Below, piece after piece: positions 20,973-57,851 of a DNA stretch of 64,000 nt (positions within the stretch are counted from its first letter, which is position 1; each line of letters begins with the position of its first letter). The notes under the pieces are model-generated. The model did no database searches. It was not told the DNA's origin and saw nothing but the letters and a program-made list of their open reading frames with translations. The translations under genes were made by a program, and so were the position numbers. The stretch is from NCBI GenBank assembly GCA_973895155.1, contig OZ316894.1, positions 10,154,379 to 10,218,378 of the forward strand, given 5' to 3'. The DNA is from Marsupella aquatica. Its lineage: Eukaryota; Plantae; Marchantiophyta.

Positions 20973-21302
20973 TGTCACACCATTTAGAGTGGTAGTAAAG
21001 TATATCATACTATCTAGGTATAGAGGTTTTGTATGTGTGCTACATGAGCACTATGTTTAGTTTGAGTTGGTGTGAGGGATAGTTATCCCCTTGTGTTGGC
21101 TCAAAGGCCTCATCTTTCAATGTTGAGCCTTTGAGCATGAGCTTGGTGGCTATGGTGTGGCTGACCAGGTTGTGTGCATGTAACGTGGATTCCTTGAAGC
21201 ACAAGGTGCGTTGGGCTTGACATACATGTGTGATCGCGTCGGATGGGATCGTTGTTAGATTAGCACCGATCGTTGTTCGATTTGCACTATTAAAGAAGAT
21301 TA
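20973..21302 (+). repeat. Terminal repeat segment A1 (330 bp)
   Basis: Near-identical to 58001-58330. Confidence 0.95.
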
Positions 21303-21949
21303 CATTGAAAGATCAGCTTTGAATTCTGATGTACGGATTGTGCAAACAGAAGTTTGATCTTGTTATGGTTTTGTTGTTGACGATTCGTGGTATCTCGAAT
21401 CGGGTTTTATTGTTGAACGGATCACTGGTATCTCGATCTGTTACAAGTTGGTGTTGAGAAAGCTTGAGTGAATGCGGAGCTTTGAGTTGTTGAGTTGCGC
21501 GTTTGGAGTTGCGGTTTGCATCGATCGACATTGCAGCATTTTTGAGGACTGAGTGTGCGGTCGATGACCGGAAGTTGCCATCAATTGTTATGCACGGATT
21601 GCTGAGAGTATTCGTTGTGAAGGCAAGTCGGTCGAACTTGTGATGTTTGCGATTCTGGTTGGGGGATGGTTCCAATCATGAGTCGATAGTTGAAGTAGTA
21701 CGTTGCGGATTTGAGATTCGTCAAGTTGATGTTGACGGACAGTGCATTCCTTCGAAGAAAGTGACGTTGAATGTTGGCGAATTGCATTGCCTGCGATGAC
21801 GTAGCACACCGCGGAGAGGCGATGTAGCGCACCGCGGAGAGGTGAGGTGTGGCGGCAACCTACAGCACAAGGAAAATGACAAAGTTAGTGAATAGTGCTT
21901 TATTCGGGAATTGCGACGGGGTTTTCGCAGCAACAAGGTTGTGAAGGTC

Positions 21950-24900
21950 TTCCACGGAACACTGTTCCGTTGAAAGGGCATATTGGAGATTGGTTGACTG
22001 TGGAACACCGTTCCGTCATGGCAGTTTTGGGAAGATTGGTCTTCCACGGAACACTGTTCCGTCGTGAGTGCATATTGGAGAATGATCGGGTACATATTAC
22101 CATTTTGTCGTGGTAATTGTGGGAAGATTGGTCTTCCATGGAACACTGTTTCGTCGTGGGTGCATATTGAAGATTGGTCTGTGTGGACCGGCTCAATATA
22201 GGGTATGTAAGGAACTTGTCAATTTTTTTGTTGTTTGTACAAGGAATAGTAAGAAAGTTGTTGTAGTGTTAGCAAAGTACTTAGGGTTTGCAACCCTAAG
22301 TCACTAGGGAAGGCTAGTAGGAAATCATGGAAGGGAGAAAATGTGTTGTTCTAAGCAAATGTAAAGGGATAAGTAATGTGATTTTGGTAGGCAGCAAATG
22401 TTCCACCCTTAGTTAGGATAGGCGACTAAGTCGGGACCGGAAAATGACCCGACACCTGACATATTATTTTTGGCTGATATTTCTCCCATGGGTGTTGGGA
22501 GGTCCCTAGGAAACCCTGAAAAAGTATGAAGTCAAGTGGGGTCTCAACCTAGGAGTTGTGAGTATTTTGACAGAAATTAAAATAACCAACTAGCGGGCCC
22601 CACAGAAAATAGCCAAGGGGTAAATTTTGTGGGTTCAAGGTTAGAATTGAGTTTAGTATAGACCATAATATCCCTGGATTGTCTCAGAAATAATTTGTCA
22701 CCTTTTGTTACTTTTTGGGAACACCTCAAAGATTGGGAATAGTAATGCGCTTTAATAGATATGATCAAACTTATGTATTTTTAGAAAAGTCGTTATGGAG
22801 TGTTTAGAGAGTTTGATAAATACAGGAGTGAGTCCTATGTCCAAGGATTCCAGAAATGTGCTCAAAAGTACATTTGGACATTTGAGTGAATTATGGCATG
22901 GCCTTCAAGAGGGGCCAGTATAACTATTTCTCCTGAGAGGAAAACGAAATTTTTCCAAGTGTCAAAACACGTCGACGCGGCTGCGACCAGACTAGCACGA
23001 GGTCAGGCAAGCACGACATGGGCAGAAATGCACGAGGTGGGCTAATTGAAGGGCTGGTGCTCATCAAAATAGGCCACTCTTGATCTGAATAGACAGGTGC
23101 GGGATTGAATTGAGCTAGCTGCTGCTGAGAAGGACTTGACCCAGTTGCTACTGTGAAATTGAATTGTGAGCTATGGCTGCTGATTGGAATAGGGAGGCTA
23201 GCTTTTAATTGGGAAGGTTGCTTGCTGCTATGGCAGTGGCACAATAGATTAGAGGTGCTGCTATTAATTAGGCATGAGATGCTCACGAGAATTGGCTGGC
23301 TGCTGCCTTGATGCTGCTGAATTGATGGATGCTACTGCTAGTTGTGAAATTGCAGAGGTGGGCAGCTACGAAATTGAGAAGAGAGACCTGCTTGGCTAAG
23401 TGATTGGAATAGAGCTAGTTGTTGAGAAGGAATCAAGCTATGGCTGCTGCTGCTGTGCTTTGAATCAGTTGCTATGCTTCGAATCTGCTGCTGTGCTGCA
23501 AGCTGCGAATTGGTGGGCTATGGCTGCTGCAAAATTCTGCTGCGATTTTGAATCACTTGCAAGGCTGGATGGCTATGGAGGTGGACTGAGAAGGGTGCTG
23601 TAGACCTGGCTGAGCTATCAATTGACCTGCTGTCATTCGATCCAATAGAGAATGCTGCCGTTTCAGATTGAATTCAAGAGAGGGGAAAATGCTGCAAAAA
23701 TTGGTGTCCTTATCAATCTTTTTCATAAGAAACGTGAGTATAATGAGAGTACTCTCCCCTCATGACACGTGGAATCCCCATAAGGGGCGTGTAAGGTTCA
23801 AGTGTAATCGGGTCGCTGCTTACACCCGCTTTATACCAAAAACAGGCCTTGGGAGAATGAACATAACTTTGGCTAGGGGTATCCGTTGGGGCCCAAATGT
23901 TTTTGTGCTGAGTTGGGGGAAGGTAAGGCACCCCTTGGTGAAGGTGGAAACCCAGAAAAATAATCACTCAAATATATTTTTAGTGGAGGCCACGAGGGGG
24001 TCCCCATAGCTTGCAAACGGGAGTCGGCATGGAGGAAGTAAGACCAGGTTTTTAGGCCGACACTTCTTGCACCCGTGTCACCCAAGTTAGGATACATGGA
24101 GAAGAGAGTACCTCAGGGTAAAGGTGCAAGGCCGTTAGGGTAAGGAAAGTAAGTTGATAGGTCGGGGTAGTAAATAAGAACTAGTAAATAAGGAGCCAAC
24201 TTTGACATGACACAACTTGAGACTCACTCACTCTTTTTGCGAGCTTTCAAGTGGGTTGGGAAGCTGGTGAGGAGGACCATAAGTGAGAGCAGGTTTGGAG
24301 GTCAAAGCATGCAACTCATGTGTGGCATATTCCAGGGCTTGGAAGGAGTCAAGCAATAGGTTGTAGAGTGAGCTACAAACTATAGAGTTGGACTTTGTGT
24401 GTTAGGAGGACTTGGGGGAGGAGTAGTTGGACCCCAGGTCAAGCTTGGTATGGTGTGGAAGGAGAATAGTATATATGGAGAAAGTTTTCCTTTGTTAGGG
24501 ACCGGGAGTCTCATCTCTTAAGTGGAATCTCTACCTTGCCAAGGTAGGGCTAAGCTTGAGAAGGGAGAGGTGGTCCATGCTTAGTGTGGAGAATGTGTAG
24601 TGAACTTTTGTTGTAAAGGTGATACAATAAAAGGGGACTTGTCAATCTTCATTGTGACCATTAAGTGTGAGTGCATTTAAAGTATATGAGAACAAGAGAA
24701 GAATCCATGCTATGATGTAATCTTGGTCTAAGCTCAAAGGGGATGTGCTAGTACAAAACCAAGGCCAAGGAGACAAGGTTAAGGTAGAGCACTACTTTGA
24801 GACTTAGAAAGGATTATAGCTTGAGGCTAGAAAGTATTTTGCTTGGTGTGTGGTGTTAACAAGAAGTAAGAACAAGAGGAAGAGTCCTTAGATAGAGGCG

Positions 24901-25570
24901 CATTCTCTAGAGCTCAAAGGGGATGTGTGGACCCAAACCAAGGCCAGGGGGGCAAGGTTAAGGGGTAACACTACTTTGAGGGTCTTGAGGAGACTTAAGC
25001 TAGAAGAGGAAAGTACTTTGGGTTCTTGGGTGTTTGTGTGAGAATCTACTCTAAGGTGACAGCTTGGAGCGGAGATCCCCCTTGCTGATCTTTGGAGTAG
25101 AGGAGAGGGGAAGGGTGTGAGTACAAAAGTAGTCAAGGGGACTACCTCTCTAGAAGTGGAGAGTTGAAACTACTTATGTATGGACTGATTAGACATTGTA
25201 GACACATTTCAGAAGTTTTGTCAATCCTTTGTGACCCTGGTATGATATGGAGCAGGTATTAGGTAGTCTTTTGGGGAGAAAAGCCGCTTAAGCTCCTTGA
25301 CAAGTGTTTGACAGTCTGCCCCAGCACACGTCTCGTCTGCGTTGTGAACAAGGGTTGGTTGCGGAACACTGTCCCGCAACTAGACAGCTCACGGAACACT
25401 GTTCCGCCAATTAGCTTGGCTATTGATGATGGAGGGTTGCAGAACACTGTCCCGCAACTAAGTAGTTTATGGAACACCATTCCGTCAATTGTCTTGGAGA
25501 TTGGTGGTGGTGCATTACGGAACACCATTCCGCAATTGAGTGATGGGTATCCGCGAAATACCGTTCCACC
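21950..25570. repeat. Dispersed palindromic motif CGGAACA-C-TGTTCCG, about 10 copies in the DNMT-Gypsy leader (21950-22155 and 25360-25570)
   Basis: Perfect and variant copies on both sides of the 22206-25302 insertion. Confidence 0.8.
22206..25302 (+). mobile_element. Probable ~3.1-kb solo/truncated LTR of another family
   Basis: Starts TGTAAGGA and ends TCCTTGACA (imperfect inverted termini). Non-coding, with an internal duplication at about 24730-25030. It interrupts the palindrome array. No TSD (GGGTA vs AGTGT). Confidence 0.6.
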
Positions 25571-25805
25571 AATCGGTTGATTATTGATAGTGGTGAGTTG
25601 ATGGTGACCATTTAGGGAAAATTGGTCATCACGGAGTCCTCTGGTAATACATGGGGCTACCCGAGGGACGACGGTCTGGTTTCACTCGGAGTGGAGTGCA
25701 ATTTTGGCCGACGATATTGTTAGTGATCACAAGTAGGGTTTTAGATAGTGATTCTGACGAGGACTTAGTAGCCACTTCTCCTCGACATCAAGTGACTGTT
25801 CCATT

Positions 25806-27430
25806 GTTGTGGGATATGGAGGAGATGTATGGGGCCACGAAAGGGCCGAGGAGATACTCTGGTGCAGTTGGCACGATTGATTTGGATGATTTCATCCAAG
25901 AGTTTGATACGTGGTGTGATATGCAGACAATGCGTAATGTCACATTGTTCACACCTTTCATGGCTTGGAAAGGGTTGTTTCAGCATTTGGAGGGGCCACC
26001 CATGGATGACTACCATGAGTTTCGAAAGGCTCATTTAGTGGATATTAAAGCATGGAGACAGCATTGGTCACCAAACTATGTGTCCATCACTTATGGCACA
26101 AGTGCGGTTGCCCAACCCATTGCTACAGTTGCAGTTTCTTCTAGCAGCACTAGCCAGAGTGGCACTCCATCAGCATCCACCCTCGGGGGTTTCACTTCCA
26201 CAAAAATGGCATATCACGTGCGACAAAGGATAGGGTCATTTTATTGATTGTAAGGGAAGACTTAAGAATTTTTGTAGAAGAACAATAGGGTCTTTTAAAT
26301 TCAATTTTGAGACTTATAAGAACATTAGGGCCTTTTTAATCCAATTTTTGGAATATTCCAAGAATATTCCAACTTTATAGGGGTTAAAAAATAATATTTT
26401 TTTCTTACATTTAGGGGGTCCAAGGCCTAAAAACGTCGCAGGTGATGGGGAGGTCCCCATGTAGTGAGACCCCCGAGCATCCACCGCTACTCCTACCTAT
26501 GTGATTGTGGCTGGGAGTGGAGTTGCACCAACATTTAACCCTTTGATGAAGTTCTTTGAAGTATTGAAGCAGAACTACCAGGGTGTGAGAACCGATAAGT
26601 TGAAGGGTCTTAAGGAGTTCCAGCACAAGACTGGAGAGAGCCTACGTGAGGCATACACTCGTATGCAAAGATTGATTACGGTCACACAAGGAGTGACAGA
26701 GGCCCAAGCGGTCCAATTTTGGTATGCAATTCTAGATAGGGGTTGCGTCGTAGAGTGAGAGATGCCACTCTATTGAGGGATTCACATCCCACATTGGCTA
26801 TAGTTTTTGCACTTGCTGAGCGCATTGAGCTCAATATGGTGAATGAGAAGGTGGTGACTTCCGGATTTTCCAAGGAAGCACCAAAGGTTGCATCGATGCC
26901 CACACTGCAACCTACTGCACGTAAGAGCCAGAGAGAGAAGCCTACAACACGGGAATCTACTAGTCAGAGACCTGTGCCTTCTTATGCTGGACAACAATCA
27001 AGATGTTGGACTTGTGGTGGGGATCATGCACAAAGATATTGCCCAGATAATAGGGGGCAAGGAGGGGCATCTACACCCGATCAACGACAATGTGATCATT
27101 GTGGAGTTGCTGGACACACCAAAGATAGGTGTTTTGTCCTTCATCCTGAACTACGACGGGGAGGACCACGTGCGTATGATCAGGGAAGAGGAGGTAGAGG
27201 TGGTGGACGTGGTCGAGGCATGCCACATGCAGGAAGATAGAGAGGTGATGTTGCTCCTACCGTTACCACAGATCCTAAGGATGCAAAGATTGCTCAATTG
27301 GAGCAACAACTAGCTGCAATGGCTAGTTCTCAAGTTAGACCTACTGCTAGTGATGGGGCTTCTACATCCTATGGAGCTTCAACCTCTTATGGAGCTGATG
27401 GAGATCTGCCACCATGGGATTTATGTGTGG
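25806..27430 (+). pseudogene. gag of the DNMT-Gypsy (interrupted by a MITE, frameshifts and stops)
   Basis: YSGAVGTIDLDDFIQEFDTW, FQHKTGESLREAYTRM, and two zinc knuckles CWTCGGDHAQRYC and CDHCGVAGHTKDRC. Confidence 0.8.
26182..26477. mobile_element. 296-bp MITE with 15-bp TIRs and 8-bp TSD (hAT- or P-type)
   Basis: CTCGGGGGTTTCACT ... AGTGAGACCCCCGAG (14/15 match). TSD CATCCACC at 26174-26181 and 26478-26485. Removing it restores the gag frame. Confidence 0.92.
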
Positions 27431-27949
27431 CACTGCGCATGTTGATGCATCAGTAGCTTTGACTCGAGGAGCAGTTAAAGCCCTTGAGCCACGAGGAGCA
27501 ATGGTAGAATTGGATCCGTAGAGAGGGAATCTTTGTCGTCAAACGAAGCTTCCCCAATCGTTTACATTGTTAGAGGCAGTTCAAACTACCTCTATGAACC
27601 CGATTCGGACTAACCTAGGTGGGGGTAAGTTGGCGGATTCAAGTGATGTTGTGACACGGATGACAAGTACCCTGTTGGGGGCGGCCACTAGTATAGTGCG
27701 CACGCCATTATTTTCAGCTACGGATATGTTGACATTGGGAGTTAGTCCAGTAGAGGTATTCAGGTTGGCGGCCACATTATGCGAGAACACTCCAGCAGTT
27801 GCTTCGCGTGTAGAAGCAATGCCCAATTCTGAAGCAGCGGAGTTGAATCCACCTATTGCCAGTAATGAAACATGGCATGCAGCAGCATCGAGGTTGATAG
27901 ATTTACCAGCGCGCCCTGCTTATGAGAGGACTAGGTTTAAACCTAGCGT

Positions 27950-28350
27950 CATATCATTGGATAATCGGAGTGGTATCTTCCGATTAGTTGGGCCTTCTAG
28001 AGCAATATACCAGCCAGAGCGAGTGTTACTGGATACTGGTGCTCAGCCCTTGATGTTGGGTAAGTCTACGATAAGAGGATTGGGATTGCGTCCTGATGAT
28101 TTGGAGGAGTGTCCCTTTCCCATTCAGACTTCATTGGGAGGACCTACACCCACACAGCATATCACTCGACGAGTGTCTTGAACTTAGGATTCAAGAGGAT
28201 CATTCAAAGGATAACTCACGGATCCAGGCTTGAGCTATTTTGACTAAGGTTGAGTCATATGATGTCTTGGTGGGATGTACAGTTCTCTATCCTATGGGAT
28301 GTGTTCTTGATTTTTGGAATGAATCGGTGTCGTACCGACCCGATTGGCAA
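27950..28350 (+). pseudogene. Aspartic protease of the DNMT-Gypsy
   Basis: RVLLDTGAQPLMLG and YDVLVG motifs. Confidence 0.8.
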
Positions 28351-28734
28351 TCTGGAGATGCTCGATTGAGCCAATTGCCAGTGCAATTTAGTGGACCTGT
28401 TGGAGGCCCCAAATTTGCACCATTGTCTTTGGCAGCATTCAGTAGTTTGATTATTGGAGCTGATGATTTGATTGAGGGTAACGCACATGCAGCAGATGTT
28501 CCTACAGTGGAGGAGACACATGAGGAACACTTGATGCATGGATTTCCCGTTGATAGTGTTGTGACACCAGTATGGGGTACTGGACAGGCCTTGCCACAAA
28601 GTGCAGCCCGATTGATACATGATGCATGGCGTCATGCTTTTACACCGCAATCAGGAGTAGAGCAGTCAACTGCAAATGGACCAGTGACTCTTTCACCACT
28701 GGATACTACTCCTATTGCATGGCAATATCCACAT

Positions 28735-29700
28735 GAGGTTATTTGTTTGTTGGATTTATTTGGTGGAATTAGCACTGGATTGGCTGTCGTTCTTCAAGCC
28801 GGCATTCCTGTGCGCCGTTATTTGTATGTGGAGACTGATGAGACAGCACGTAGAGTCTCATTACATCATTGTTGGTCGAACGTTACCCACAGTTGTTACC
28901 AGTGGATGCCGTTCGTGGTTATCAGCATGCATTGCCAGCTGATATTTCATTGTTGGGGGTGGATCATTTGGATCGCGTTGGCCCCATTGATTTGGTGATT
29001 GCACATTGGCCATGTCAGGGTCAATCTAGAGCTGGAGTTGGACATGGACTTCATGATCCAAGATCTGCATTGTTTTGGGAGATGTTACGGGTGTTGCGTC
29101 ATCTTCAGTTGCATCAGACACATTCCCCTGCCTACATTTTGGAGAATATACCATTATTGGGTGATGATCGTCATCGACTTGTTGCCAACGTTCATCAGGT
29201 TAAGTCTTGGATTGGACCTACTGTGTTATTGGATGCTGCACGTGTGGGTTCTCGTGCACATCGTCCACGCTTGTGATGGACTAATTTGTTACCTTGTGAG
29301 GTGTTGAAGCGAGCATTTGATAGCATTCCTCGCTCAGCAGCCTTGGTGGTGGATGATATTTTGGATCCAGGGCGTCGTGCACAAGGTGTGACCCAGCCTG
29401 ACAGACCTCCATTGGCAGTGGTCAATGTAGTTGGTCGCCCACGTTGTGCATTACCCACTTTTGTAAGTCATTCTGCTTCATATGCATTCAAAGCAGGTGG
29501 GTCTGGACTTGTCTGGGATACAACTTTACAGCAGTTAGTGGAACCTACTGCTGATGAAAGAGAGCGTGCTATGGGATTTTTGACTGGCACTACTGCGGTT
29601 GCCTCTGTGTCAGAGAGTTCACGCCGCCAAGTCCTTGGTCAAGCCATGGATTTGAATTGCTTGACTTGGATTATCAGCTTGGGATTAGCTGAACAATTGC
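28735..29700 (+). pseudogene. C5-cytosine DNA methyltransferase domain, DNMT3-like, within pol
   Basis: Motif I LLDLFGGI, II YVETD, III DI, IV DLVIAHWPCQ, VI ILENI, VIII AHRPRL*WTNL, IX ERERAMGF, X LGQAM. Frameshift at about 28870 and TGA at 29274. Confidence 0.9.
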
Positions 29701-29899
29701 GGATGCGCTCTTTTGGTGTTACTGATCGTCCATTGGTGAGCTTGCGGTCTACTGAGACAGTAGCGACCATAGCTAGGGGCGAGCAGATAATCCATGGACC
29801 TATGGCAGGATTGGCCAAGGCAGGTGAGATTGTTGAGCAGGTTGGGACTGCTCAAATTGTTGCTAAATAGCAACCACCGACTATCTTTTCAACCCTGAA

Positions 29900-30380
29900 G
29901 GAAGACATCACAGCTTTGATGGAGAGTTGGGAGCCACAAATTGGCCCTAAGTTGATAGGGGGTGAGAGACGTCGAATGCATCAATTCTTGAAGAGTTACT
30001 GGAATTGTTTTGCATTTAGCATGAATGATTTGGGAACATTGAAGGGCCTTGGTATTGAAGGGCCTTGGCTAGTGATGCGCCAATCTTTCGACGACCATAT
30101 CGATATAGTGATATGGAGAGGGCATTGATCCAGAGTAGAACTCAAGATTTGTTGGAAGCTGATTTGGTGGAGATTTCATACGGAGAGTATGCATCTGCCA
30201 CAGTGATGCCAACCAAGAAGGATGTGCATGGCAATTACATGGATAGGCGAATGTGAGGTGATTATCGGCCTATTAATCATCAGAAAAAATCTGATCGATA
30301 TGCCATGCCCACACCGGAGGAGATCTTTGATGCAGTGGGGCATGCAAGGATTTTTAGTTTGTTGGACCTCAGGGCGGGGT
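29900..30380 (+). pseudogene. RT N-terminal part of the DNMT-Gypsy
   Basis: PIFRRPYRYS, YASATVMPTKKD, RM*GDYRPIN, DRYAMPTPEEIFD, FSLLDLRAG. Confidence 0.9.
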
Positions 30381-31289
30381 CCCTGGGCCCCCAGCCTTTG
30401 TATTGATAAGGGGTATACGTGCGTACAACCCCTTACCACATACCCCTTATTATTTTTGGTCACTGATAGATATAGCTCTTGTTATTCTTAAAAACTTAAT
30501 TTTAGAGAATTTAAAAGTCCCTTGCAAAAATTATAAATGTATCATTAATCGCATTTAAAAAGGTCTTAAAATATAATAAATTTGAGAAAAATATTGAAAA
30601 ATATACAAAACTCATTAAAGGTATACCATAGAAAAATAGGTATCTCTATATAAAATAGTGTTGGAATGGAGAAGAAGACTCAACTTTAACACATATAAGA
30701 GTGTCTTCTTATGTTCTAGCACATGTAAGAGTGCTTCACTATCACATGCAACAGTGATTACAAATCTATCTATTGTCTATAAGAGCATATATGTAAAAGT
30801 ACTTATACAACTATTTTCTAATAATTTTATAAAAGCACTATTTCTAGAAAACATTTTGCTGTAAACATGTAAGAGTGTTTGCAGAAGTTCTCAACTAAGA
30901 GGCCGGGCACACATGTAAGTTTAGTGCATACAGAACAAGTTTAGTGTATACAGAACTCCTATCAGAACTAAGAGAACACTCTGAAATTTATATGTCCTCC
31001 TCTTGTCTTCCATCTTCAAAAGATCTTGTCTTCCTTCTTCAAAAGATCCTGAGTGAACACAATCAAAAAAATTTACATTAAAAACAGTAATGATTTGTCC
31101 AAATTAAACTACTATGTGGAGTAGTATGTAAGCCCCTAATGAGCATATGTTTTAATGTGTCATATCAAATGGGATATCAAATTGTTCACAAAAGCAAACA
31201 AGATCTTAAGCACTTGCCTTAGAAAAAATCTTGTCTTCTTGCATGGCTGAATTCTCAAAATATCACCATTTACCCCTCTGTTGTACCAA

Positions 31290-34200
31290 TCACGTATGGG
31301 CTTTAGCAAAATCATCCAGCAAATTTGCATCAGCAGGATGCAAATGAAAAACATTTGGAGTTGTGGGATTCACTGATAGTGTCACGTTTGATATCACACA
31401 ATCCAAATCGATCCACTGAGGATCACAAACATTGTAAGCAAATCTGTGCTTACTATTTCCAATCCTTGAAAACCATTCAAAACGAACTCTTACAGCTTCT
31501 TCATCGCCAGGCCTATCAAGTAAATCCACTGATTGTCTTGTTCTACCCATCACCCGACCCTGATATTTTTGTTGGATGCATTGTACCCTCCCTATCCACC
31601 AAGTGTACTTAAGGGTATCAGGTACTGTGGTAACGTTCACAGGTTCTCCCCTTGGCTTTTTTGGATTGGGAGCAGAAGATCCATTTGTTGTCCCACATTC
31701 TTTCCTTGCTCTTTTCCCTTTCATGGCAGTATAGCCTCAGTGGCTCTTGTGGCCCGAGTCTGTACTGTTGTATCAGCAAAGAGAACTCCACAATCACTAC
31801 CCACAGTCATGAACATGGTGACTGCTCCTGCTCGATCTGTGGGTGCATCAACTAAATTGTTGAAGTACAAGCTCTGTTTCACTCGAGTCAAACGATCTTT
31901 ACTTACATTGGGGTTACCAACTAGTTGACTTACCAATGTGCTCTTGTATATGGTCCGACCGTCATAACTCACAGTTGGTCTGATGTCAAGAACAGGTTGT
32001 CCATACACCAAGTCTGAATGCATTTCAGACATAACAGCAGAACAGTGATCTCCTACTATTGCAATGCTTGGCCTTTCACTATCTTCAATGATCTCACTAC
32101 CTTTTGCCATTGCAATATCAGCTGGAAGTGCTGGGATGGTTACATTAGCTGCAATTTGCCTGATCTCCCCGCCTGATTCTTCATCATCACTATCAACAGG
32201 TGCAAGATCCTCCACCTTAACATCACACCATCCTCCAAACTTGGACCCTTTTTTTCAGTAATCCAAGGTGATTCCCACCATACTTTATCCCTACAAGATG
32301 TAGATGGATTCATCTGCAACTCGATTCCTACAGTCTGGGCTAATAATAACCCTTCTTTCAGGGCCATCACAACTTCCTCATTGGTTTCAATACTTGTGTA
32401 GTCTACAGGATTAACAGAAGTACCAACTTGTACCGGTACCAGATGCAATTTCATCCAAATATTGCAATGCTTCTTGTGACTTTTTCTAGCCCCTCTGATC
32501 CCTTTGCTGAGATCCATTGCAGCCAACCTATTCAGAGATGTTGCACAGTCAATCAACTCAGAGAAATCGTAACTACGCTCATTCCCTTTCATTCCTCCTA
32601 CTTTGGAGAAAAACTTTTCACATGCATCAGATCCTGTCAAATGCAATGGCACATTTGGCAAATGTCTGAAATTATCCCTAAATTGGATAATTAGAAGTAC
32701 TATAAAGTGCACAGACATCTGAATGTCAAGAAACGTCTGCATAGGGACACAACTCACAGTAAAGTTGATTGTTGTTGTGTTACCTCCAACACCATGATTT
32801 CCATGAAAACACCATAGTCGCCAAAGGCGGAAAAAGAAACTAACTTTGGCACAGAGCACAACTCGCTCTCTCAAGGTGAGACAAGGATTCATAAAGATAT
32901 CCAAGTAATCACCACATATTGTGAGATACATCTCAGTCCCCAGAGTTCGCTCAACTCTTGCATCTTTCCTTTCACGAAGCATTCTTAGTGCCTTCACAAC
33001 TTTTCTACTACATAGTCGTTGTGCACTAGCCCAATTCTGTCTATCATTCCGTGTAACATCACCTTTGTTCAACCCATGATCCAAGTTGCTATATAAACGT
33101 TGGAGAGTGTCCAAGTTACTGATTCCAGCCACCTCTGTTCCGAGCTTCAAAGTTCTGGCAGCAGAATCAAGTGGGTTTATTAACTTCTTTCCATTGTGAA
33201 TGTTATCCTGATCATGTAACCCAACAGCATGTGTATGACGTCCATTGGTAGTGAATGAGTGGCTCAATAGCCAACCTTCCCATCTCAGATTTTGTCTTGG
33301 CCCTTGATATGAGCTTTGACCAGTGTAGTCTTCCAGCATCAGCTTCCTCCTTCGTGCATCTCCATCACTAGCATGACCCAAGAGAGGACCAACTGAGTCT
33401 AGACAATATTTAGCCCACAGTGTGTCTGTGGACTTCCATTGTTGATTGACAAAATCTGCAGTAAACTTACCGCATGTACTCATAGCTACCATGCAAAATT
33501 TAGGAAATCTTTCTGCAAGAGGATTTACTACTATACATCTGGCCTGGTTTCCAATTTTGTAATTCTCAAAGGTATCAGTGATTTTGCTGAAACCTTCCTC
33601 TCCTGCTCCAACCTTTATTGTCAAGCCAACCACACATTGATGATCCTCTTTCAACCCACAAAACCCCAATAATGTGTCATGTTTTGGTTGCCATCTGCAA
33701 CACAGCCATCCACAATAGTGGTCAGCCACAAACCTACTGGGGAGAGGGATAATAGACAAAAATTTGCTACAGTTTAGGGTATTGTCAGGGAAATGAAATC
33801 ACCTGACTGTCCGCTTAAGACATGTCTCATCTTCTGCCAAATAGCATGGCACAGGACCTGTGATCCCCATCCTCTGCTTTAGTTGAGAGTATACAGCAGC
33901 AACAAACTTGAACTGGTCAGCATGTAAACCAGGCCTAAATACAGCCATGGCCCTCCTGTCTCGTTGAAGGGTGTTCAGGCTAGGGCCTAATGCATTACTT
34001 TGCAAGCAGTCCACTACACGCCTGCCACCGTGCTGGAACAATATCTGGGAAAGAAGTTTAGTGCCAGGCCGAAAGGTGTTTCCTTCTTTCTTCCTATTAA
34101 GGTTTGCAGCTACATCTCACAACAAGTCCCATAGGGCCTCTCTCCCACCAAATGCACCACGCTGGTGAGCCAAGACTATGTCATTGCAGAACTTGTATAG

Positions 34201-34670
34201 GTCTTTCCTATTTCCAGACTCTTTGCAAAGATCTCTCAAAGTGGGGACTCGGGCTCCCAGCATGCACAGGCGGTGCTGCTGAGCTCTGAGACGTTTTTTG
34301 AGAGATGAAATGTTTCTCTTGTAAGTTTTGGCTTGTTCTTGGATCTCAGGAATTGTGAGATATGCCAACCGTCTACCCCTACCGGTTCCTCGAGTACCTC
34401 TTTTCTCTACTGCAATGTCCTCTCTAAAGGCTCTTAAACGAAAATCACCCATCCTTGCAATACTGTAACATTCTTCACAAGTCAGATCCTGAAAACCACC
34501 AAGAAGTCGTGATGCTCTACTACAGTTCACATGCCTGAATAGTCCTTCTACCAAACAAGATTCTTGGCCTAGAAGACACCACACCTCTGCCTTTACCCCT
34601 GGCTCTGAGTACCATGCTCCGTCAACCTTTGGCTGATCTAATAGGATATCCTTGATAGGCCTGATTACTG
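31290..34670 (-). pseudogene. P-like DDE transposase, 3' part, with BAH-like C-terminal domain
   Basis: YLAEDET, GHASDGD, DNIHNGKK, DRQN..SAQRL and GSDACEKFFSKV follow the D..D..H..E pattern of P-type transposases. Intron at about 33694-33802, in-frame TGA at 34117, frameshifts near 32215 and 31722. Tail WWIGRVQ...VRFEWFSR...WIDLDCVISNVTL. Confidence 0.7.
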
Positions 34671-36387
34671 TGTGGAAAGGAGACTTTTGCTGAAACACGA
34701 CCATAAGAGAAAAATCTGAATCGTTTCAAACTTTTTGAGCAAAAACGACGCTTTCTGAAGCGTCTACTTTCAATTTGGCGGTTAACTCACTTCAGTCTAA
34801 CTAAGGACGCTTTCTGAAGCGTCCCCAGTTACAAAGCCAATAAACCTCAAGACAGCTGAGGCGTCCATGTGTGCTGCCAACCAGATGCGACCCCCTTAAC
34901 CACGACGCTTTTTGAGCCGTCCTTCACCGATACCACGGAACAGAAGACGCTTCGTGAAACGTCTATTCGAACCAGACACCGGACGCTTTAAGACGCTTTC
35001 TGAAGCGTCCGCTAACCCCAAAGTCCGATGAGACGCTTTCTGAAGCGTCCACATGAGAAGTGACGCCTCGACTGTTCGGCCGTGTTCGAAGACAAAGCAG
35101 AATCGACGCTTTCTGAAGCGTCCGCCAAGACAGACTTCGCCGCTTTCTGAAGCGTCCCACCTGAAGGCCGGAAGACGGACGCCGCGACCAAACCCTCAAA
35201 ATTCAGCCGACGCTTTCTGAAGCGTCCATAAAAGTCCTTTGTAGTTTTGGACGCTTTCTGAAGCGTCCACTATGTTCCCAACACTTAGAAAAAGTTTCAG
35301 TTTTCGCACTTTTATAACACCGTGCCACTTTTACCGATTTATTTGAGGCACTTAGAGACCTCAGAAAAGTCTGAAACTTTACCAGCATAGAGATTATATG
35401 TAGTAGAGTACTCTAGAAAAGTCTCAGCTCATTCCGACTTTTAGTTTAGAAGTTAAAATTATATTAACACCACTGTTTATTAGTTTTACCGGAAAGCACC
35501 GACGCTCTACAAAGCGTCCACTAAGTCTCCAATGCATTTCTTTATTTCTTTTAGGATTGTCTTTTAGATATTTGAGGTTTGAAAAGTCATGCCTTTTCAG
35601 TTAAGGGAACCTTTACTTATAAAACCTCATGTTTTTTCCATTCGAAAGGAGGGGGGGACAATTCCAATCAGACTTCTGTTAGTTTCCCTCCTTCCATTTT
35701 AACAAGAGAAGTCTTGTATGGAAGTAAAACTTATGTTTGAATTTATGAATTCAAGAAATTTCTTGATACTTGAATTCAGTTACAAACTTCTGTGACTTAC
35801 ATTGAATTCACTGCTAGGCTTGCTTGAAGGGTCAAGATTCGCTAGCTAATTCAAGAGTTGTTGTTTGATATGTGAGAAGTAAAGTTTGGTTCTCAGAGTA
35901 TTCAGTACCGTTACTTTGTTTATGGAATATGATTTAGTGTTTGACGGAATTGCGTATCGCTGATGTCAAACCATGTTGCCGGCATCTTAAGTCATATCAT
36001 TACATTTGTAACCAGAGCAGTACTTGTTTAGCAAATTGGAAATTCCTTATCATGCAATTTTATTTAGTCAGGAGAGAAATTAGTGAGTTATGAGACTTGT
36101 TTTATGTCTATTCTAAGACCATAGTCCTTTTTGAAGGAGTGGCAATAGCTAATCAGAGTTTTCAGACCATAATTGACTCTCTCTTGACTCATAAGACAGA
36201 AGTTTATTTACTTTGGTGTTTTGTTTATTTGATCTTTTAGTGAGAAACAAGAAATCTATGTGCTGAGAGCTTTAGATTACTCAGAGAGATAAATTCATTC
36301 AATTCTTTCCAAATCTGTTCTTAAAGGGATCGTATTCCGAGTCTTTATGTAAAAAGTGTTCCTTTTTGTTCTTTTGGCTATACGACA
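34671..36387 (+). repeat. Athila-like 5' LTR
   Basis: TGTGGAAAGG...TACGACA. Confidence 0.96.
34747..35520. repeat. Array of palindromes GACGCTT-TCTG-AAGCGTC (about 11 copies incl. variants; repeated in the 3' LTR at about 46878-47650 and at 43887-44075)
   Basis: 18-bp motif with 7-bp inverted arms and irregular unique spacers. Confidence 0.9.
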
Positions 36388-36396
36388 TATGATTTT

Positions 36397-36414
36397 TGGC
36401 GCCGCTGCCGGGGA
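36397..36414 (+). promoter_or_regulatory. Primer-binding site, Athila type
   Basis: TGGCGCCGCTGCCGGGGA, close to the Athila PBS TGGCGCCGTTGCCGGGGA. Confidence 0.85.
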
Positions 36415-37345
36415 ACAGTATGGAATGGATTGATATCAAGGCAGTGAATGCCAACCGAGGAGGTTGAATTGGTCAGAAGGAGTTACTTAATGGAAGATTC
36501 AGGACAATGGCCAATTCAGGTGCTGGAGGTTCGACCCTTCACCCTAGCAAATGCCCCGGAAGCTTTCCGGGAGATGATGAGGGAGGAAGCTCCTTAATAG
36601 GAGAAGGAGAAGGAAGGAAATTAAGGCCAAAAAGGATAGCCTCAAGGGTGCTTGATTTCCATGTGAAGAAAGAGATTTCTGTGTGTAGGAATCGAGATTA
36701 AGATAATCAGTGGATTATAGGCGAAGTTTGGAAAGAGTTTTACCCTTTTTATTGAAGAGATCAATTTGTTTAGGATAAGTGTTAGAGCCAATGCTAAAAA
36801 TTATTGAGATACTTAGGCTATAAGCCAACCTTAGGGGTGGAGGATTCTTGAAGAATGCCCCCACCCATTAGATCATTAGGCTCCCTACGAGTTAGGAATT
36901 TGCATAATCAATATGTGCAAACATGGGTGTTAAGTGTGAGGGGTAGAAGGGGAGTTCATTGGCTGTCCATAATATGGTGGGAAGGTTTGAATTTGCATTT
37001 GGTAATGCTGAGATTAAATGGTAGGATTACTCAGGAGAGATATACTGTAATTTCTATTTCGGAATTGGCTAGTACAATGCTTCAAGGTGAAATGGGGCCC
37101 AATAGGAGGATGAGATAGGAAGTGCTGCGGTAAACCTAGCCAAAGAAGGATATGAAGAGGGGTCAGGAGAAGATCTCCAAGGCATTGAATGGGTTTCCAG
37201 ACACTTTGGATTCCCAAGAGTTGAATGGACATACCTGTTCGAATCCCTCGACACAAGGTGCAAGAGGCATGCCCCTTGGGAAAAGCCAAGGTGACCGCTT
37301 CCATCTGTAGTGGGTGTTTTCTCAAAATTTGAGTGGCATTGAAAG

Positions 37346-37699
37346 ATGCTTGTAATCAAAGCTACCATGCATCCCTCCAATGTGTTCACAAGAGCCATCC
37401 AAAGTTCTTTTGAATCTCAGGTGAGATTGGCGGGATACCTGATTAAGGAAGTTTCAATAGACAGGGGCTCTCGAATTAATTTGCTTTCTATTCGTTTGGC
37501 TCAGAATCTGGCTCTCGCACCAATTTTACCAACTTACACACAGTTCTGGATCAATGGCCAATTGATTAAACCTGTGGGGGAGATGAGGGTAGTACCTATT
37601 CAAATTGGTGATCGCCTGTACCACCTGGATTTCTTCATAATGGGGCCTCATGAATCACATCTTCCTTCAATACTTCTGAGTACGACCTGGATTCAGTAA
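37346..37699 (+). pseudogene. Extra retropepsin-like ORF upstream of gag
   Basis: EVSIDRGSRINLL...IKPVGEMRVVPIQIG...LDFFIM...SILLSTTWI parallels the element's own protease (VPVDGGSSVNLM...VLLGRPWL). Confidence 0.6.
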
Positions 37700-37753
37700 T
37701 GTAGCAAGACAATTAACTGGGGAGAGAAGTTTTACTATTGCTAAGAATGAGGT

Positions 37754-40027
37754 ATGTCGGAGGAAGCTCGCCAAATCAAAAAGAAATGGAGGAAAGCTTC
37801 TTATAAATCAGAATCCTCGAGCAAGGCAGTGGAGCCTCGAGACCTCCTGTCTGAGTTTCAAGCATCAGAATTCCCTTTACCGGGAAGTGTGACAAGGAAG
37901 GTAACCTCCATTCAGACTAGGGTAACCCAAGGGACTCTGGAAAATCCTGCACCCAGTAGACCCTTATATGTGAATTTGCAATCCGGACCCAAGTTGATTG
38001 GTCCACCACAGCATTCAAGGAAACCATCAGATGTCGAAGGGATTTTACAACAGAATCCAACTCTAGAAGAACTTGAAGGCTTCACAGCATTTAATTCATC
38101 AGAAGGGTCGTCTTCAGGCGAGAAGAGCTCCGGCAGTAGTTCAGAATCTAGTAGTTCTATTGTATTAAGTCCTCAAACTTGGACTAATCCGTTTGCCATC
38201 CGATCTGCCTTACCCATCCCTAATCTAAGTCCTACTATAATGGCTCGTAACAATGTGAGATATGATAGATTCTTTGGATCATCTAAAGAGGATGCAGAAG
38301 TCTATTTGAAGGAATTTGAAGCTGCTGCAGCTTCAAATGGACAAAGCCAAGATGCGGAAAAGGCTAATTTATTTGGTGGACTGATGAAGAAGAGAGCTCA
38401 AAAGTGGTATGATCGCTTTCCAGATAAACATGACTGGGGTAAGTTGAAGGCTGCCTTCTTGGCTAAGTACAAAGAGGAGGGGTCTGCCGCTCGAGCTTTT
38501 GCTAGGATCTCTCATTTACACATGAAGAAACATGGGTCTGTGAGGAAATATGCGGATAAACTGTTGGATTTGGTGGACCAATATAATCCAGCCACATCTA
38601 AGTCTACTGTGAAGGATTGGTTTATCAACGGATTGCCGTCACGAATTGCTCGATATGTCAGGCGTGAAGGTGGTACTACTTTGGAGGAAGTTCAGGAATC
38701 AGCACAGAAGTATGTGGATTCTGAAATTTCTGAGAAAAAGCGAGTGAGGAAAGACTTGAAGAAAGATAAGAGGAAAAAGAAGAAAAAATCAAAGTCTAAA
38801 TCTGATTCGGAGAAGGACGATAGTGACAGCAGCAGTAGTGAAGACGATGAGAGTACGGATTCAAGCACTAGTGCGAGCGCTAGCTCTAGTTCTAGTTCAG
38901 ATTCGGAACAGTCCGCCTCCAAAAAGAAGAAGTCAACCTCGAAGGTAGAGCCTAAGACTTCTACTCAGAAAAAAATGGATCGCATGATGGAGGAAATAAC
39001 CGGGAAGCTATCTAAGCTGAATGTACATATTGCTGCGGTGAAACCTGTGCGAAGATTACCACCAACCATGAGGACAAACGTGTGGTGTACCCATTGTAAT
39101 CAGCAAGGGCACTATCCGACGGAGTGCCCAAATTGGCGTATGGCAGTAAATTACTTGGAAGGACCGGAGGAGGTAGAAGATTACGAATACGAGCTGGCAT
39201 ATGCAGTTCAGGCAACACCAGGAGGTCAGTATTTCCCACCTGCCCCTCCACCAATGAATAATTGGGTACCGCCAAAACCTGCCTTCAACAGACCTGTTCC
39301 CAGGCCGCCTATGGGACCTCCAGGAGGATACCCCCCTAGAGGAGCTCCACGGCAGAAAGGATCCTGTTGGAATTGCGGTCAGCCGGACCACTACTCACCG
39401 CAATGTCCGTATCCGAAGAGAGAAGAGGGATACACCCCTATATGTGGAAATTGTGGCAAGGAAGGGCACTTGCCTGTGGAATGTCCAAATCCGCCTAAAA
39501 CAAAAATGATGGTTCGCTTTGCTCAAGAGCCTGTCAAGGAGACAATCAGACCAGAGGCTAAAGTGAGGATGGTGTACTCTGAAGAGGTTGAGCATTGTGG
39601 AATGATCCACCATGGGGATGTGAACAGAGTGGAAGTGACAGGCCACTCCACGTTTGCTCAACCACTGGCCAGAATTGTTCCTGATGTGTTAGTGGATCAC
39701 TTGGTGAAGCCAGGGGTGGTGGGCATGCCTAATGCTCGAGTTCAGGATCGGGATAAAGTTCTAACGGATACCTATGCAACTACTCGTTCCAAGCGGAAAG
39801 AGGAGAAACGAGCAGTAGCGAAGCACCAAAAGAAGGGACCTAAGCCGAAGGAACGAGCTCCATTTGAGGAAGGCCTACCCAAGGATCAGGACCCAGCTTA
39901 TGATCGCTATGATCCCAAATATTTTTTACCTGACATTTCTTCAGAAGTAAAAGCTCAATTAGAGGAACTAGTTAAAGATCACACCTCGCATTCAATTCAG
40001 AAGCCAGTGGTGAAGGAGCCCGAATGA
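37754..40027 (+). CDS. Gag
   Basis: YDRFFGSSKEDAEVYLKEFE, WFINGLP, and three CCHC knuckles (CTHCNQQGHYPTEC, CWNCGQPDHYSPQC, CGNCGKEGHLPVEC). Confidence 0.9.
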   Translation: MSEEARQIKKKWRKASYKSESSSKAVEPRDLLSEFQASEFPLPGSVTRKVTSIQTRVTQGTLENPAPSRPLYVNLQSGPKLIGPPQHSRKPSDVEGILQQNPTLEELEGFTAFNSSEGSSSGEKSSGSSSESSSSIVLSPQTWTNPFAIRSALPIPNLSPTIMARNNVRYDRFFGSSKEDAEVYLKEFEAAAASNGQSQDAEKANLFGGLMKKRAQKWYDRFPDKHDWGKLKAAFLAKYKEEGSAARAFARISHLHMKKHGSVRKYADKLLDLVDQYNPATSKSTVKDWFINGLPSRIARYVRREGGTTLEEVQESAQKYVDSEISEKKRVRKDLKKDKRKKKKKSKSKSDSEKDDSDSSSSEDDESTDSSTSASASSSSSSDSEQSASKKKKSTSKVEPKTSTQKKMDRMMEEITGKLSKLNVHIAAVKPVRRLPPTMRTNVWCTHCNQQGHYPTECPNWRMAVNYLEGPEEVEDYEYELAYAVQATPGGQYFPPAPPPMNNWVPPKPAFNRPVPRPPMGPPGGYPPRGAPRQKGSCWNCGQPDHYSPQCPYPKREEGYTPICGNCGKEGHLPVECPNPPKTKMMVRFAQEPVKETIRPEAKVRMVYSEEVEHCGMIHHGDVNRVEVTGHSTFAQPLARIVPDVLVDHLVKPGVVGMPNARVQDRDKVLTDTYATTRSKRKEEKRAVAKHQKKGPKPKERAPFEEGLPKDQDPAYDRYDPKYFLPDISSEVKAQLEELVKDHTSHSIQKPVVKEPE

Positions 40028-40030
40028 CCT

Positions 40031-40762
40031 GTGTTAAAGCAACAGGGATATGATATTGTAGAAGACGTGAAGGGCCATCTTGCTCATATCACCATTGGTG
40101 AGTTGTTGCAAGACAACCCGGTTTATAGACGCCAATTGAGAGGATTGTTGGCAGGAAAGCGAAGGCGGCGTAAGTTGCCAGAGGTGGATGTATTACGTTT
40201 GGAATGGGAGGATAAGGGACCACCAGAGCTGGACGTACAAATTCAAGGATGTGTTGTGAGGAGAGTACCAGTGGATGGTGGTTCCAGCGTCAACCTCATG
40301 ACTCAGCAAACTGCATTTAATCTTGGATTTACTAAGTTTGAACCAACACCCAAGATCCTGCGGATGGCGGACCAATCTCGAGTTGTTCCCGCGGGAAAAT
40401 TAAGTAAGGTAGATACTCTGATTGCTGGTGTTCCATTTACTTTGGAATATGTGATAATAAGTCCAGAGGTACCTTCCAGCTTTCCAGTCTTGTTAGGCCG
40501 CCCCTGGTTGTATAAAGCCCAAGTGCAGGTAAATTGGAAAGCTCAAGAGATGTCTTTTGGTAAACCCAAGGTGGTGGTGAGTTGGGCTACTGAGGATCAT
40601 AAGGGCGAGACGCAAACTGACGACGGGTATACGTCAGACTTTTCGGATTCCAACCTGATTCTGGAGCCATTGGAGTTTGAGTTGGAGGAGGTACGCTATT
40701 TGGAGGTTTACCTATCTGATCCAGTTGTGGAGACTGGATTAGCTTCTGAGGACCCTTTTTGA
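40031..40762 (+). CDS. Aspartic protease region (same frame as gag and pol, bounded by single TGA codons)
   Basis: VDGGSSVNLM, LRMADQS, VLLGRPWL. Confidence 0.88.
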   Translation: MLKQQGYDIVEDVKGHLAHITIGELLQDNPVYRRQLRGLLAGKRRRRKLPEVDVLRLEWEDKGPPELDVQIQGCVVRRVPVDGGSSVNLMTQQTAFNLGFTKFEPTPKILRMADQSRVVPAGKLSKVDTLIAGVPFTLEYVIISPEVPSSFPVLLGRPWLYKAQVQVNWKAQEMSFGKPKVVVSWATEDHKGETQTDDGYTSDFSDSNLILEPLEFELEEVRYLEVYLSDPVVETGLASEDPF

Positions 40763-40840
40763 CAATTTCCACCGGAAGGGGAGAAAGCAAACTTACAAGG
40801 AGTCGGCCATGATACAGGGAAACAATTCTCAGATCAGCAA

Positions 40841-43771: not shown

Positions 43772-44270
43772 TTTGAGTGGAGGGCTGGGATAGGTATATT
43801 TCATATCTGTAAGAAATACTAGTATGGAAGGGCTTAGAATAGTAGATTAAAAGATTATGTTTGGAAAATTTTTAAAAAAAAATTGAGACGCTTTCTGAAG
43901 CGTCCAGCATTGTGGACTGATTTCGTGAAGCGGGACCGATGGGACGCTTTCTGAGGCGTCCGCTCCACGACCAGTAGACGACGCTTTCTAAAGCGTCCAG
44001 GAGATGCACTTCGAAGGCGTCAACTTGCTGACTCAGGATTTCCGTCCGGATTTGGGCCGCTTTCTGAAGCGTCCAGCACAAGTTGAAATTTTGGAATGAT
44101 CTCAAGTACGGCGAGGGATTGTGACGTCTAATGGGTCGAAGAAGAGAAACGACGAGTGGTTTTTGAAACCAAGTTTAGTAGCGCTCATTACCGATGATTG
44201 ATATAGAGGAGGTGGCGACCCTGATTGAGGGAAGAGTGGAGATGCGCCAGAAGAGATTGCAGACTGAGCG

Positions 44271-46700: not shown

Positions 46701-46801
46701 TTTTACAACTCCACATCATTAAAGAGCCACTTCAGAAGTGCCTGATCAAGTATATTATTTCACTTCTTGTGCGGACACAGCAAAATTTGAGTGGAGGGCT
46801 A

Positions 46802-48518: not shown

Positions 48519-48523
48519 TACTG

Positions 48524-53600: not shown

Positions 53601-55073
53601 ACCAAACAATGCCCGACATTTACTAAACGGAATGCATCAAAGACAGGGAGCCGAAGGATAGTACCACATTGTCTAACAAAGTCATCAAATACACCATGAA
53701 ACTAAGTGTTTATAAAATCCCAGTCCAGACTTCAATGTAGGGTAGCAAATCCCGGGAGCAGATCAACGCAAGCACATCATGCAGCTCAAGTAAGGTGGTG
53801 GAAAAGTAACAAACCTGCTCGACACAGAATTCCCGACACAATAAGTGACACAATGTCTCAAACACGGGCTTAGCAAGAGCGAGAGCGACAGGTCTGGGCT
53901 TTTGTTGCTAAAACGTCCCTTCCTCCTTTGCGACGCAGTCTCTACAAGAGTGTCCAGCTTCACACAGCCCCGCACAGTGCTTTACCAAACAAAGTATACA
54001 GTAACTCACCACTCAATCGCCCTAATGCAGAATGTACTTAGGCCACAATCGTAGCATTCTTGTCACTCGCCAAGCTCATAAACTCCATAGCCAGATTGAT
54101 GTGGCGGCTACTTTGAAAGCGCGCCCTACGTACATAGAATATGTGCCAATCAATATCAGCTAAAGAAAACCAGCACTCCACAGACACCCGCATAGACATT
54201 GGCAGCCACATTTAGGTGCAACCAAATAGAGGCAATGCGCGTAGAGAAACATTAAGCAAAGCTCTGATTGGCAAGTTCAAATGATAGGAAGAAACCAAAC
54301 CTCTCGCACGTCGATAGCTTCCCGCAAATAGCACCTTCAGTAATGCTTGTCCTCAACCTGGTCTCGCCACTGTATTCCTTGATCAGCCTCGACGAAGCTT
54401 GCCTTTGTCCCAAAACCTACTTGTTGCCTTCATTGCCTAAGGGAACCTACGGAGATCCAGCACCCATTGACGACCTCCACTGCAGCATTTCATTCAAGGC
54501 TCCATAGCTCACAAGCTCAGTGCAGCATTGCCAAGCGGCAAGCTTCCAACTTCTCTCAAGCTTGCCCGTGGAATGCGCGGCAAGTCCCTAGTGTGTCCAA
54601 AAACCCTAAAGGACTTGGGCCCTCACTCCCGCCCTCACTACCCCGCGCTCACGTCCAAAAAAGCCTGGCAAAAGAGGATGGGCTTTAGGGTCTAGCACTA
54701 TACCCACTACTAACCAAAACCCCGCCCATAACCTTTCCCTTTGAACTATCCGGCAAACTATCCCCCAAACCAAAAAAAATTCCAAAATCCTTAGTCCTAG
54801 GTAGTACTAGTGCCATTTACACAAGCTTCAATAAGGACAAGCCACGTGGACCAATGATGTAATGACGCGTGGCCTCGGGTATTACAACCCCCCTTCAAGC
54901 AAATTAAATTGGCCCTGGATTTACATTACCCTGCACTAGTTATAACGTATGCTACACATACAACACACCCTTGTTGGTTATAACCCAATTATAAATATTA
55001 GTCGGAGTTTGGATTAAAAGCACCCTTCGGCCGTTCGCACGTCCGGCTCGTTATTAGTCGCTGGGGGCGGGGT

Positions 55074-57688: not shown

Positions 57689-57851
57689 TGCCGACTAGTT
57701 ATCATTTGTGTTCTCATGGAAGATATAGATTGCAGGTAGGTGATTGATGGGCTCACTTGCACCCGACCTCCTGATCTTCACACCTAAAAAGGTGTATATC
57801 AACCTTGTAGAACTCATGGCTAGCTAGAGTTAGGGGACCTCACTCCTAGCT

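Follow-up and report, generated by a model that had tools for sequence, protein, structure and literature searches.

De Mendoza et al. (2018; PMC5890265) described KnitGypsy-Dnmt3, a retrotransposon of the alga Klebsormidium nitens that has DIRS-like repeats and carries a DNA methyltransferase (DNMT) in its Pol. In yeast, the KnitGypsy-Dnmt3 domain left the DNA unmethylated, a result that the authors deem inconclusive; DIRS-borne DNMT3 domains in the same paper methylated CG. What a retrotransposon does with its DNMT was left open there. A 2025 paper (PMC12344493) and a 2026 preprint from the de Mendoza group mention "streptophyte" elements as having been reported before. In a full-text literature search, with most subscription journals, Repbase, figures and supplements outside its scope, we found no published bryophyte or chlorophyte members, and no published account of a PHD finger, stop or priming site in such elements.

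Here we analyze a window (the whole stretch of 64,000 nucleotides studied) that contains a decayed element with a DNMT3-like domain. Judged by its sequence, the window's clade belongs to the KnitGypsy-Dnmt3 lineage; what sets it apart from KnitGypsy-Dnmt3 itself is its host range and a stop that would shift the DNMT to the Gag side. Both elements have Gypsy domains, DIRS-like repeats and an intronless, unrearranged DNMT3-like domain under purifying selection. The K. nitens protein GAQ93235.1, which we assume to be a KnitGypsy-Dnmt3 copy, indicates that the two DNMTs are homologous and lie behind the protease. The authors place DNMT and reverse transcriptase (RT) in the same ORF, whereas the window's clade has a stop between them. 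The main text of PMC5890265 never uses the terms PHD, protease or readthrough, and the parts of it covered here do not describe self-priming or 4-bp duplications. The host of KnitGypsy-Dnmt3 is an alga, whereas that of the window element is likely a bryophyte.

Three further systems resemble the element in part. SymbioDIRS-Dnmt3 (PMC5890265) also combines a retrotransposon-borne C5 methyltransferase, in its case with proven CG activity, with an A-coding-B-A-B repeat layout, but it relies on a DIRS tyrosine recombinase, in contrast to the rve integrase and 4-bp duplications of the window element. EpiLTRs (bioRxiv 10.64898/2026.05.21.726589) likewise pair a C5 methyltransferase in a retrotransposon with a chromatin reader; their domain is DNMT4-related and occurs with DAM and a chromodomain, not DNMT3 with a PHD finger. 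The Tcn1/Tf1-sushi chromoviruses of mosses (Neumann et al. 2019; PMC6317226) are, like the window element, Ty3/Gypsy elements of non-seed plants that have no tRNA primer site, are predicted to self-prime and carry a histone reader at the integrase end. Their reader is a chromodomain, whereas the window element has a PHD finger, a DNMT and split repeats. PHD and methyltransferase have no occurrences in the main text of that survey, and because it required two LTRs with TG/CA ends (LTR-FINDER), it is likely to have missed a split-repeat layout.

A decayed Ty3/Gypsy element with a DNMT3-like domain and a PHD finger

The features of the element, in window coordinates, are as follows.

20973..58467, plus strand: whole DNMT3/PHD Ty3/Gypsy element, with TG start and CA end
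20973..21302, plus strand: repeat A, 5' copy, 99.7% identical to 58002-58330 over 329 nt
21302..21313, plus strand: position of the primer site; lacks a tRNA-type TGG; its 12 nt are complementary to 21112-21123 in repeat A
22078..25313, no strand assigned: ~3.2-kb insertion in the 5' leader; bridged by contigs in all 4 runs (two studies)
25816..27411, plus strand: gag with zinc knuckles, placed by tblastn to Marchantia Mp4g09160 and by joints
27960..28330, plus strand: aspartic protease (LLDTGAQP), frameshifted; PF13650 E 0.0017, under the curated cut-off
28735..29700, plus strand: DNMT3-like C5 cytosine methyltransferase, motifs I-X (translation, Pfam, PDB, fold)
29868..29876, plus strand: ORF1 stop TAG, then CAA CCA, in frame with ORF2; conserved, in CAR-YYA context
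29889..30380, plus strand: beginning of ORF2 with the 5' part of RT, interrupted by one frameshift and one stop
30381..55064, no strand assigned: 24.7-kb nested insertion, with 8-9 bp duplication
55073..57544, plus strand: 3' part of RT, RNase H (RH) and integrase (INT) (PF00078, PF17917, PF17921, PF00665); six premature stops
57545..57688, plus strand: PHD finger, end of ORF2 (PF00628 E 1.2e-8)
57851..57860, plus strand: purine-rich tract (G run) directly before the first B; same place in the window and 12 loci
57861..58467, plus strand: B (57861-57998), 2-nt spacer, A (58001-58330), B (58330-58467)

The RT breaks off at 30380 and picks up at 55073, and 8-9 bp are duplicated on either side of the intervening insertion; DNMT and PHD therefore belong to one element. 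This continuity, with the PF00628 match, upholds the first-pass annotation (made from the letters of the window alone) in placing a PHD finger at the end of the integrase. The same annotation put the DNMT in Pol between protease and RT. The order stands, but the domain does not share one ORF with the RT, from which the conserved stop at 29868-29870 separates it. Without its three nested insertions the element would measure ~9.3 kb, comparable to L025 (9315 bp) and L051 (9210 bp). The smallest insertion, of ~300 bp (~26172-26475), disrupts gag together with frameshifts and a stop; contigs from 3 of 4 runs join across it.

Across the copy we counted 11 premature stops and 5 frameshifts, in agreement with the earlier call that it is dead. 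The DNMT itself has one frameshift (~28870) and one premature stop (29274-29276), and the stop at 29274 is absent from other contigs of the window's family. Its repeats nevertheless mismatch at just 4-5 of about 467 sites. Given such near-identical repeats around a heavily decayed coding part, most of the damage is probably older than the last copying, and the copy was probably mobilized in trans by proteins from relatives.

In the window 25 kb separate the DNMT from the PHD, as might be expected had a host DNMT3 exon been captured once or two elements been fused in assembly. To this reading we give next to no probability. The insertion carries a duplication and the RT continues beyond it, which rules out an assembly chimera; DNMT and PHD are both enclosed by the matching A repeats and the 4-bp duplication; and the same order occurs in intact natural elements such as L005, alongside hundreds of homologs.

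The methyltransferase domain is closest to DNMT3

Translation of 28735-29700 reveals C5-methyltransferase motifs I-X in canonical, unrearranged order: motif I (LLDLFGGISTG, from 28750), then II, III, IV (WPCQ) and VI (ILENIP), and downstream VIII (GSRAHRPRLxWTNL), IX (ERERAMGF) and X (RQVLGQAMDL). The first-pass annotation had recognized this order, including the catalytic PC and EN, had called the domain DNMT3-like, and had suggested an HMM search for DNMT and PHD. PF00145 matches 28854-29273 (E 2.5e-9; 37.4 bits, where the cut-off is 22) and PF00628 the PHD finger (above), which bears out the motif assignment.

The DNMT3-like identity was supported by three comparisons. A read-through piece of the window DNMT matched 26 PDB sequences, 26 of 26 being DNMT3A, DNMT3B or DNMT3C. 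A profile of 70 homologs ranked DNMT3A (E 3e-29) ahead of DRM (4e-15), M.HhaI (1e-9) and DNMT2 (2e-7); none of its 57 matches is a DNMT1-type chain. Folded as a single sequence the window piece reached a pLDDT of 30.5, and the model used, with 70 rows, was that of P0002, an intact homolog with 83% identity across the domain; this AlphaFold model is confident over the DNMT, and Foldseek matches it to DNMT3A/B with TM ~0.8 over the target. An Atlas look-up for the domain returned generic C5-methylase clusters only. With Pfam, the PDB profile and the fold all placing DNMT3A first, the region 28735-29700 is a DNMT3-like C5-methyltransferase domain. Its unrearranged DNMT3-type catalytic domain is shared with the DNMT3 of bryophyte hosts (Yaari et al. 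2019; PMC6453930), which differ in being encoded by cellular genes with an N-terminal domain of their own (PMC12344493).

Split repeats and a candidate self-priming site

The element is bounded by split direct repeats in the layout A-coding-B-A-B. The window and 7 loci have this layout in full, and 5 further loci have part of it; two complete flanking LTRs with a tRNA primer site were looked for and not found. Its ends read TGTCA and ACA, and the internal B/A junction carries both, with a 2-nt spacer. The target duplication is ATGA in the window (20969-20972 and 58468-58471), and among eight elements the 4-bp duplication is exact in five, has one mismatch in two and is absent in one. Duplications of 4 bp fit insertion of the integrase type. 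A DIRS/Ngaro identity was rejected on the basis of the rve integrase and 4-bp duplication, found in place of a tyrosine recombinase. The order gag-PR-RT-RH-INT (PR, protease), the rve integrase, the TG..CA ends and the short duplication are those of Ty3/Gypsy elements; Pfam detected no chromodomain at the integrase end, where the PHD lies in its place.

TGG does not directly follow A in any of eight elements. In six of nine elements the primer position is complementary over 11-15 nt to a site in repeat A, with 0 of 60 control windows matching in each; the match was not found in the other three of the nine. The L025 family has a self-priming-like site ~30 nt behind a TATAAAA box. The complementarity at the primer site is consistent with self-priming as predicted for Tcn1 elements.

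The lineage extends from chlorophytes to bryophytes

An exhaustive homolog search returned 617 clusters at E<=1e-10. Annotated homologs with 56-70% identity belong to Marchantia, Calypogeia and Sphagnum, and to Closterium too; the nearest named relatives of the window DNMT are Marchantia, Calypogeia and Sphagnum-like loci (66-70% identity). Compared with the Sphagnum-like family, the window family shows 67-71% DNMT identity and saturated dS. Also named among the clusters are Scenedesmus and Cymbomonas proteins and K. nitens GAQ93235.1 (41% identity, E 1.8e-42; order zinc knuckle-protease-DNMT). The latter is a direct match of the search. The kinship to DNMT3-bearing Gypsy elements of a charophyte alga, to which the first-pass annotation had pointed, is supported; these are the elements that de Mendoza et al. 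described in 2018. Among the named matches, a minority of all hits in homolog searches that scored ~8000 candidates, there were none from ferns, lycophytes or seed plants.

In metagenomes, an alignment scan confirmed 329 of 600 stretches, and 80 loci were kept; a scan using one protein alone gave no matches. Fifty-five of the 80 loci have a complete DNMT end and room downstream, and pol domains follow in 53 of them. Together with the 617 clusters, this makes the DNMT a feature of the family and not the one-off capture that had been considered at the outset.

Two layouts were found: protease and DNMT before the RT (PR-DNMT), and RT-RH-DNMT-INT-PHD, the latter seen in full in 21 of 199 proteins of one set and found in 38 of 120 of another. 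They divide the DNMT tree (119 domains, left from 159 when thinned at 80% identity) with one change, at support 97. Among named members the PR-DNMT layout is that of streptophytes and the RT-RH-DNMT-INT-PHD layout that of chlorophytes. GAQ93235.1 lies on the streptophyte side of this split, as does the window. In a further DNMT tree of 40 hand-picked rows the window falls in an 8-row clade (support 100) with Marchantia, Calypogeia and Sphagnum. In the integrase tree (63 of 83 integrases), 11 of 12 rows with the PR-DNMT layout group with support 99. DNMT and integrase trees agree partly, sharing 17 of 59 splits (Mantel rho 0.45, a value reached by none of 999 permutations). All of these trees, the 40-row one included, are unrooted or weakly rooted, and the DNMT trees hold no host DNMT3 or DRM sequences.

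The DNMT is under purifying selection across the family. We obtained dN/dS values of 0.12 (L005/L006) and 0.09 (L025/L031), and of 0.12-0.13, with dS near saturation, for the window against three loci. Most pairs fall between 0.09 and 0.25, and two pairs of decayed copies reach 0.29 and 0.45.

Several relatives merit separate mention. L025, L031, L056, L062, L073 and their kin form a distant second family in the same metagenome set that has split repeats and a PHD, has no DNMT/RT stop, and replaces P-C by E-C in motif IV. P0095, P0173, P0349, P0417 and ~70 clusters place the DNMT between RNase H and integrase; our literature search found no published description of these chlorophyte relatives. 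P0426 (CAA9586175.1), an ORF2 protein of the lineage, is labeled uncultured cyanobacterium at NCBI, and P0412 is filed under a spirochaete bin; both are likely plant or algal DNA in metagenome bins.

A conserved stop separates the methyltransferase from the reverse transcriptase

The window frame terminates at TAG 29868-29870, the same point as in homologs P0002 and P0200. ORF1 encodes Gag-PR-DNMT and ORF2 RT-RH-INT-PHD, with an in-frame stop between them that is conserved in three families. The intact natural element L005 has ORFs of 1369 and 1047 aa separated by one in-frame TAG CAG TTA. In a second stop-bearing family, all 21 loci covering the junction keep the stop (16 TAG, 5 TAA; 3 further alignments that do not reach the junction are excluded), which is followed by CAA CCY. 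Over the stop and the next six bases, the sole variant listed in four runs with the window's family is C/T at the first Y. The CAR-YYA context after UAG is exact in the window, L005 and L006 and agrees at 5 of 6 consensus letters in the second stop-bearing family; in the window background, CARYY follows 2 of 922 TAG triplets.

In the 40-row tree, all 14 rows of a clade with support 98 come from families whose ORF1 ends behind the DNMT, and the stop seems to be characteristic of this clade. L025-type elements, P0218 and P0217 have no stop between DNMT and RT (one ORF); since such families exist, a high dose of DNMT would not be needed everywhere.

In plants CAR YYA is the readthrough signal of TMV, which is abolished by a change of the base after the stop (PMC2754532). 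As in the stop suppression of TMV, SIRE1 and MuLV (PMC2754532, PMC2194720), an in-frame stop with CAR-YYA lies between two open frames; the difference is that the stop here follows Gag-protease-DNMT, which would put protease and DNMT on the abundant side. A search for shared RNA structure downstream of the stop found none (z -1.0, -2.1 and -0.3). From its conservation and context, the stop is likely leaky and of the readthrough type.

ORF2 might instead come from an RNA that is spliced or has a start of its own, or be translated by re-initiation, and any role of the DNMT could be combined with such expression. The second stop-bearing family has an ATG three codons past the stop, which is compatible with re-initiation; a Coleochaete transcript yields a complete called ORF2 protein; and in Tca2 an in-frame stop need not be read through via its local context (PMC2194720). 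However, the intact L005 has no Met within 60 codons past the stop, ORF1 and ORF2 are held in frame in three families whose ORF1 tails measure 61, 83 and 115 aa, and the CAR-YY context is kept while the flanks vary. We regard expression without readthrough as quite unlikely.

The PHD finger and possible roles of the methyltransferase

PF00628 matches 57548-57682, with one of the eight zinc ligands substituted in the window copy; across the family, 64 of 66 PHD hits parsed with eight ligands. Two residues before the zinc His, 62 of the 64 have Gly, a position at which H3K4me3 readers have Trp. The best PDB matches of the PHD are CHD4, KDM5B PHD1, ATXR5, PHF21A, KDM5A and DPF3, several of which read unmethylated H3K4. 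The family PHD is thus predicted to be of the cage-less type, with the aromatic cage residue missing. It is also present in relatives without a DNMT (P0372, P0375), which suggests that it has a job of its own. In Chlamydomonas transposons PHD fingers are common accessories (PMC8557442).

The first-pass annotation had suggested that the element could methylate its own cDNA or target site and read H3 tails with the PHD. We lean, by no great degree, towards reading the locus as the decayed remains of one member of an old Ty3/Gypsy lineage of green plants in which the DNMT would be made at capsid level, packaged and used to methylate cDNA, with readthrough supplying RT-RNase H-integrase-PHD. Most ribosomes would stop after the DNMT and a minority would read through TAG-CAR-YYA, giving more DNMT than RT and integrase; the protease would then release the domains inside the particle. 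Reverse transcription would be self-primed, following the Tf1/Tcn1 group, with the internal B/A junction serving as template for the two integration ends. The DNMT, abundant in the particle, would mark cytosines of the new cDNA. The PHD, lacking the aromatic cage residue, may bind H3 tails unmethylated at K4 and so steer integration away from active promoters.

CpG observed/expected ratios gave no trace of self-methylation (0.51 and 0.44 in the element against 0.55 and 0.53 in the DNMT-less Ty3 nested in it), a comparison blunted by host methylation, which hits both elements. The CHG content of the element gave no signal.

A different timing is conceivable, with the DNMT acting mainly at or after integration, in the readthrough polyprotein or bound to integrase-PHD, so that the new insertion and its flanks would be methylated on chromatin and the PHD would stand in for an ADD domain. 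The chlorophyte relatives, whose DNMT adjoins integrase-PHD, fit such a role, as does a PHD of cage-less type. In the window's clade, however, the stop parts the DNMT from integrase-PHD, and the PHD occurs also where there is no DNMT; on balance we hold this to be unlikely, though it deserves some weight.

The DNMT fold could also have been kept for nucleic-acid binding, for action on RNA or as a decoy, and not for DNA methylation. Such a role would agree with the inactivity of the K. nitens domain in yeast (PMC5890265), with the lack of additional CpG loss and with motif IV, in which about half of the family has E-C instead of P-C (64 GWEC versus 61 GWPC). The catalytic Cys and the Glu of ENV, by contrast, are invariant across 70 aligned rows, motifs VI and VIII are found in 166 and 161 of 176 near-complete family domains, and the related DIRS-borne DNMT3 domains were active on CG. 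We judge a nonmethylating role very unlikely.

In animal DNMT3, an ADD domain gives guidance towards unmethylated H3K4 comparable to that proposed here for the PHD. Extending the packaged-DNMT reading, the lineage, overlooked across green plants, may have rebuilt the animal DNMT3 module, a de novo methyltransferase with an unmethylated-H3K4 reader, out of captured parts; in the bryophyte clade the leaky stop would load DNMT into every particle in the proportions of capsid protein, and copies would arrive premethylated in chromatin lacking K4 methylation, their large number forming a hidden source of de novo methylation in mosses and liverworts. This extension is tentative, and we are inclined to doubt it.

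Other elements in the window

The insertion at 30381-55064 contains a long broken ORF in pieces, all on the minus strand (32140-33798, 33802-34116, 34120-34665 and 48522-49772), itself split by a nested Ty3. Its pieces had no match in Pfam or the PDB; by eye, some stretches resemble P-element/THAP9 transposase motifs, and the insertion is possibly an unclassified DNA transposon. The nested Ty3 (34668-48520) is young and DNMT-less, with 1722-bp LTRs that are 99.9% identical and a TGG-type primer site. It has two ORFs past the integrase, 44268-45905 (545 aa) and 45906-46700 (264 aa), neither with a Pfam match.

A SET-domain ORF (15441-16358; PF00856, E 3e-6) is followed immediately, on the same strand, by a CACTA-type transposase (16485-19727; PF02992, DUF4218, DUF4216). 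The pair is perhaps a second transposon with a chromatin-writing domain; the ends of such an element were looked for and not found. A 345-bp repeat of another high-copy element occurs at 4619-4964, 5666-6011, 20492-20834 and 59863-60028 (72-96% alike).

Implications

The lineage spans chlorophytes and bryophytes and has its DNMT at either of two polyprotein positions, which makes the capture of the methyltransferase far older and wider than the report from a single alga suggested. Its split repeats would conceal it from LTR finders, and counts of DNA methyltransferase genes in bryophytes are likely inflated by such elements. The conserved stop predicts a measurable dose, with DNMT made along with Gag and integrase-PHD at a fraction of that level. 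Marchantia polymorpha has intact Gag-PR-DNMT proteins annotated as hypothetical genes (for example Mp4g09160 and Mp8g17980); as a genetic model for which methylation mutants exist, it would allow tests of what a retrotransposon does with a DNMT.
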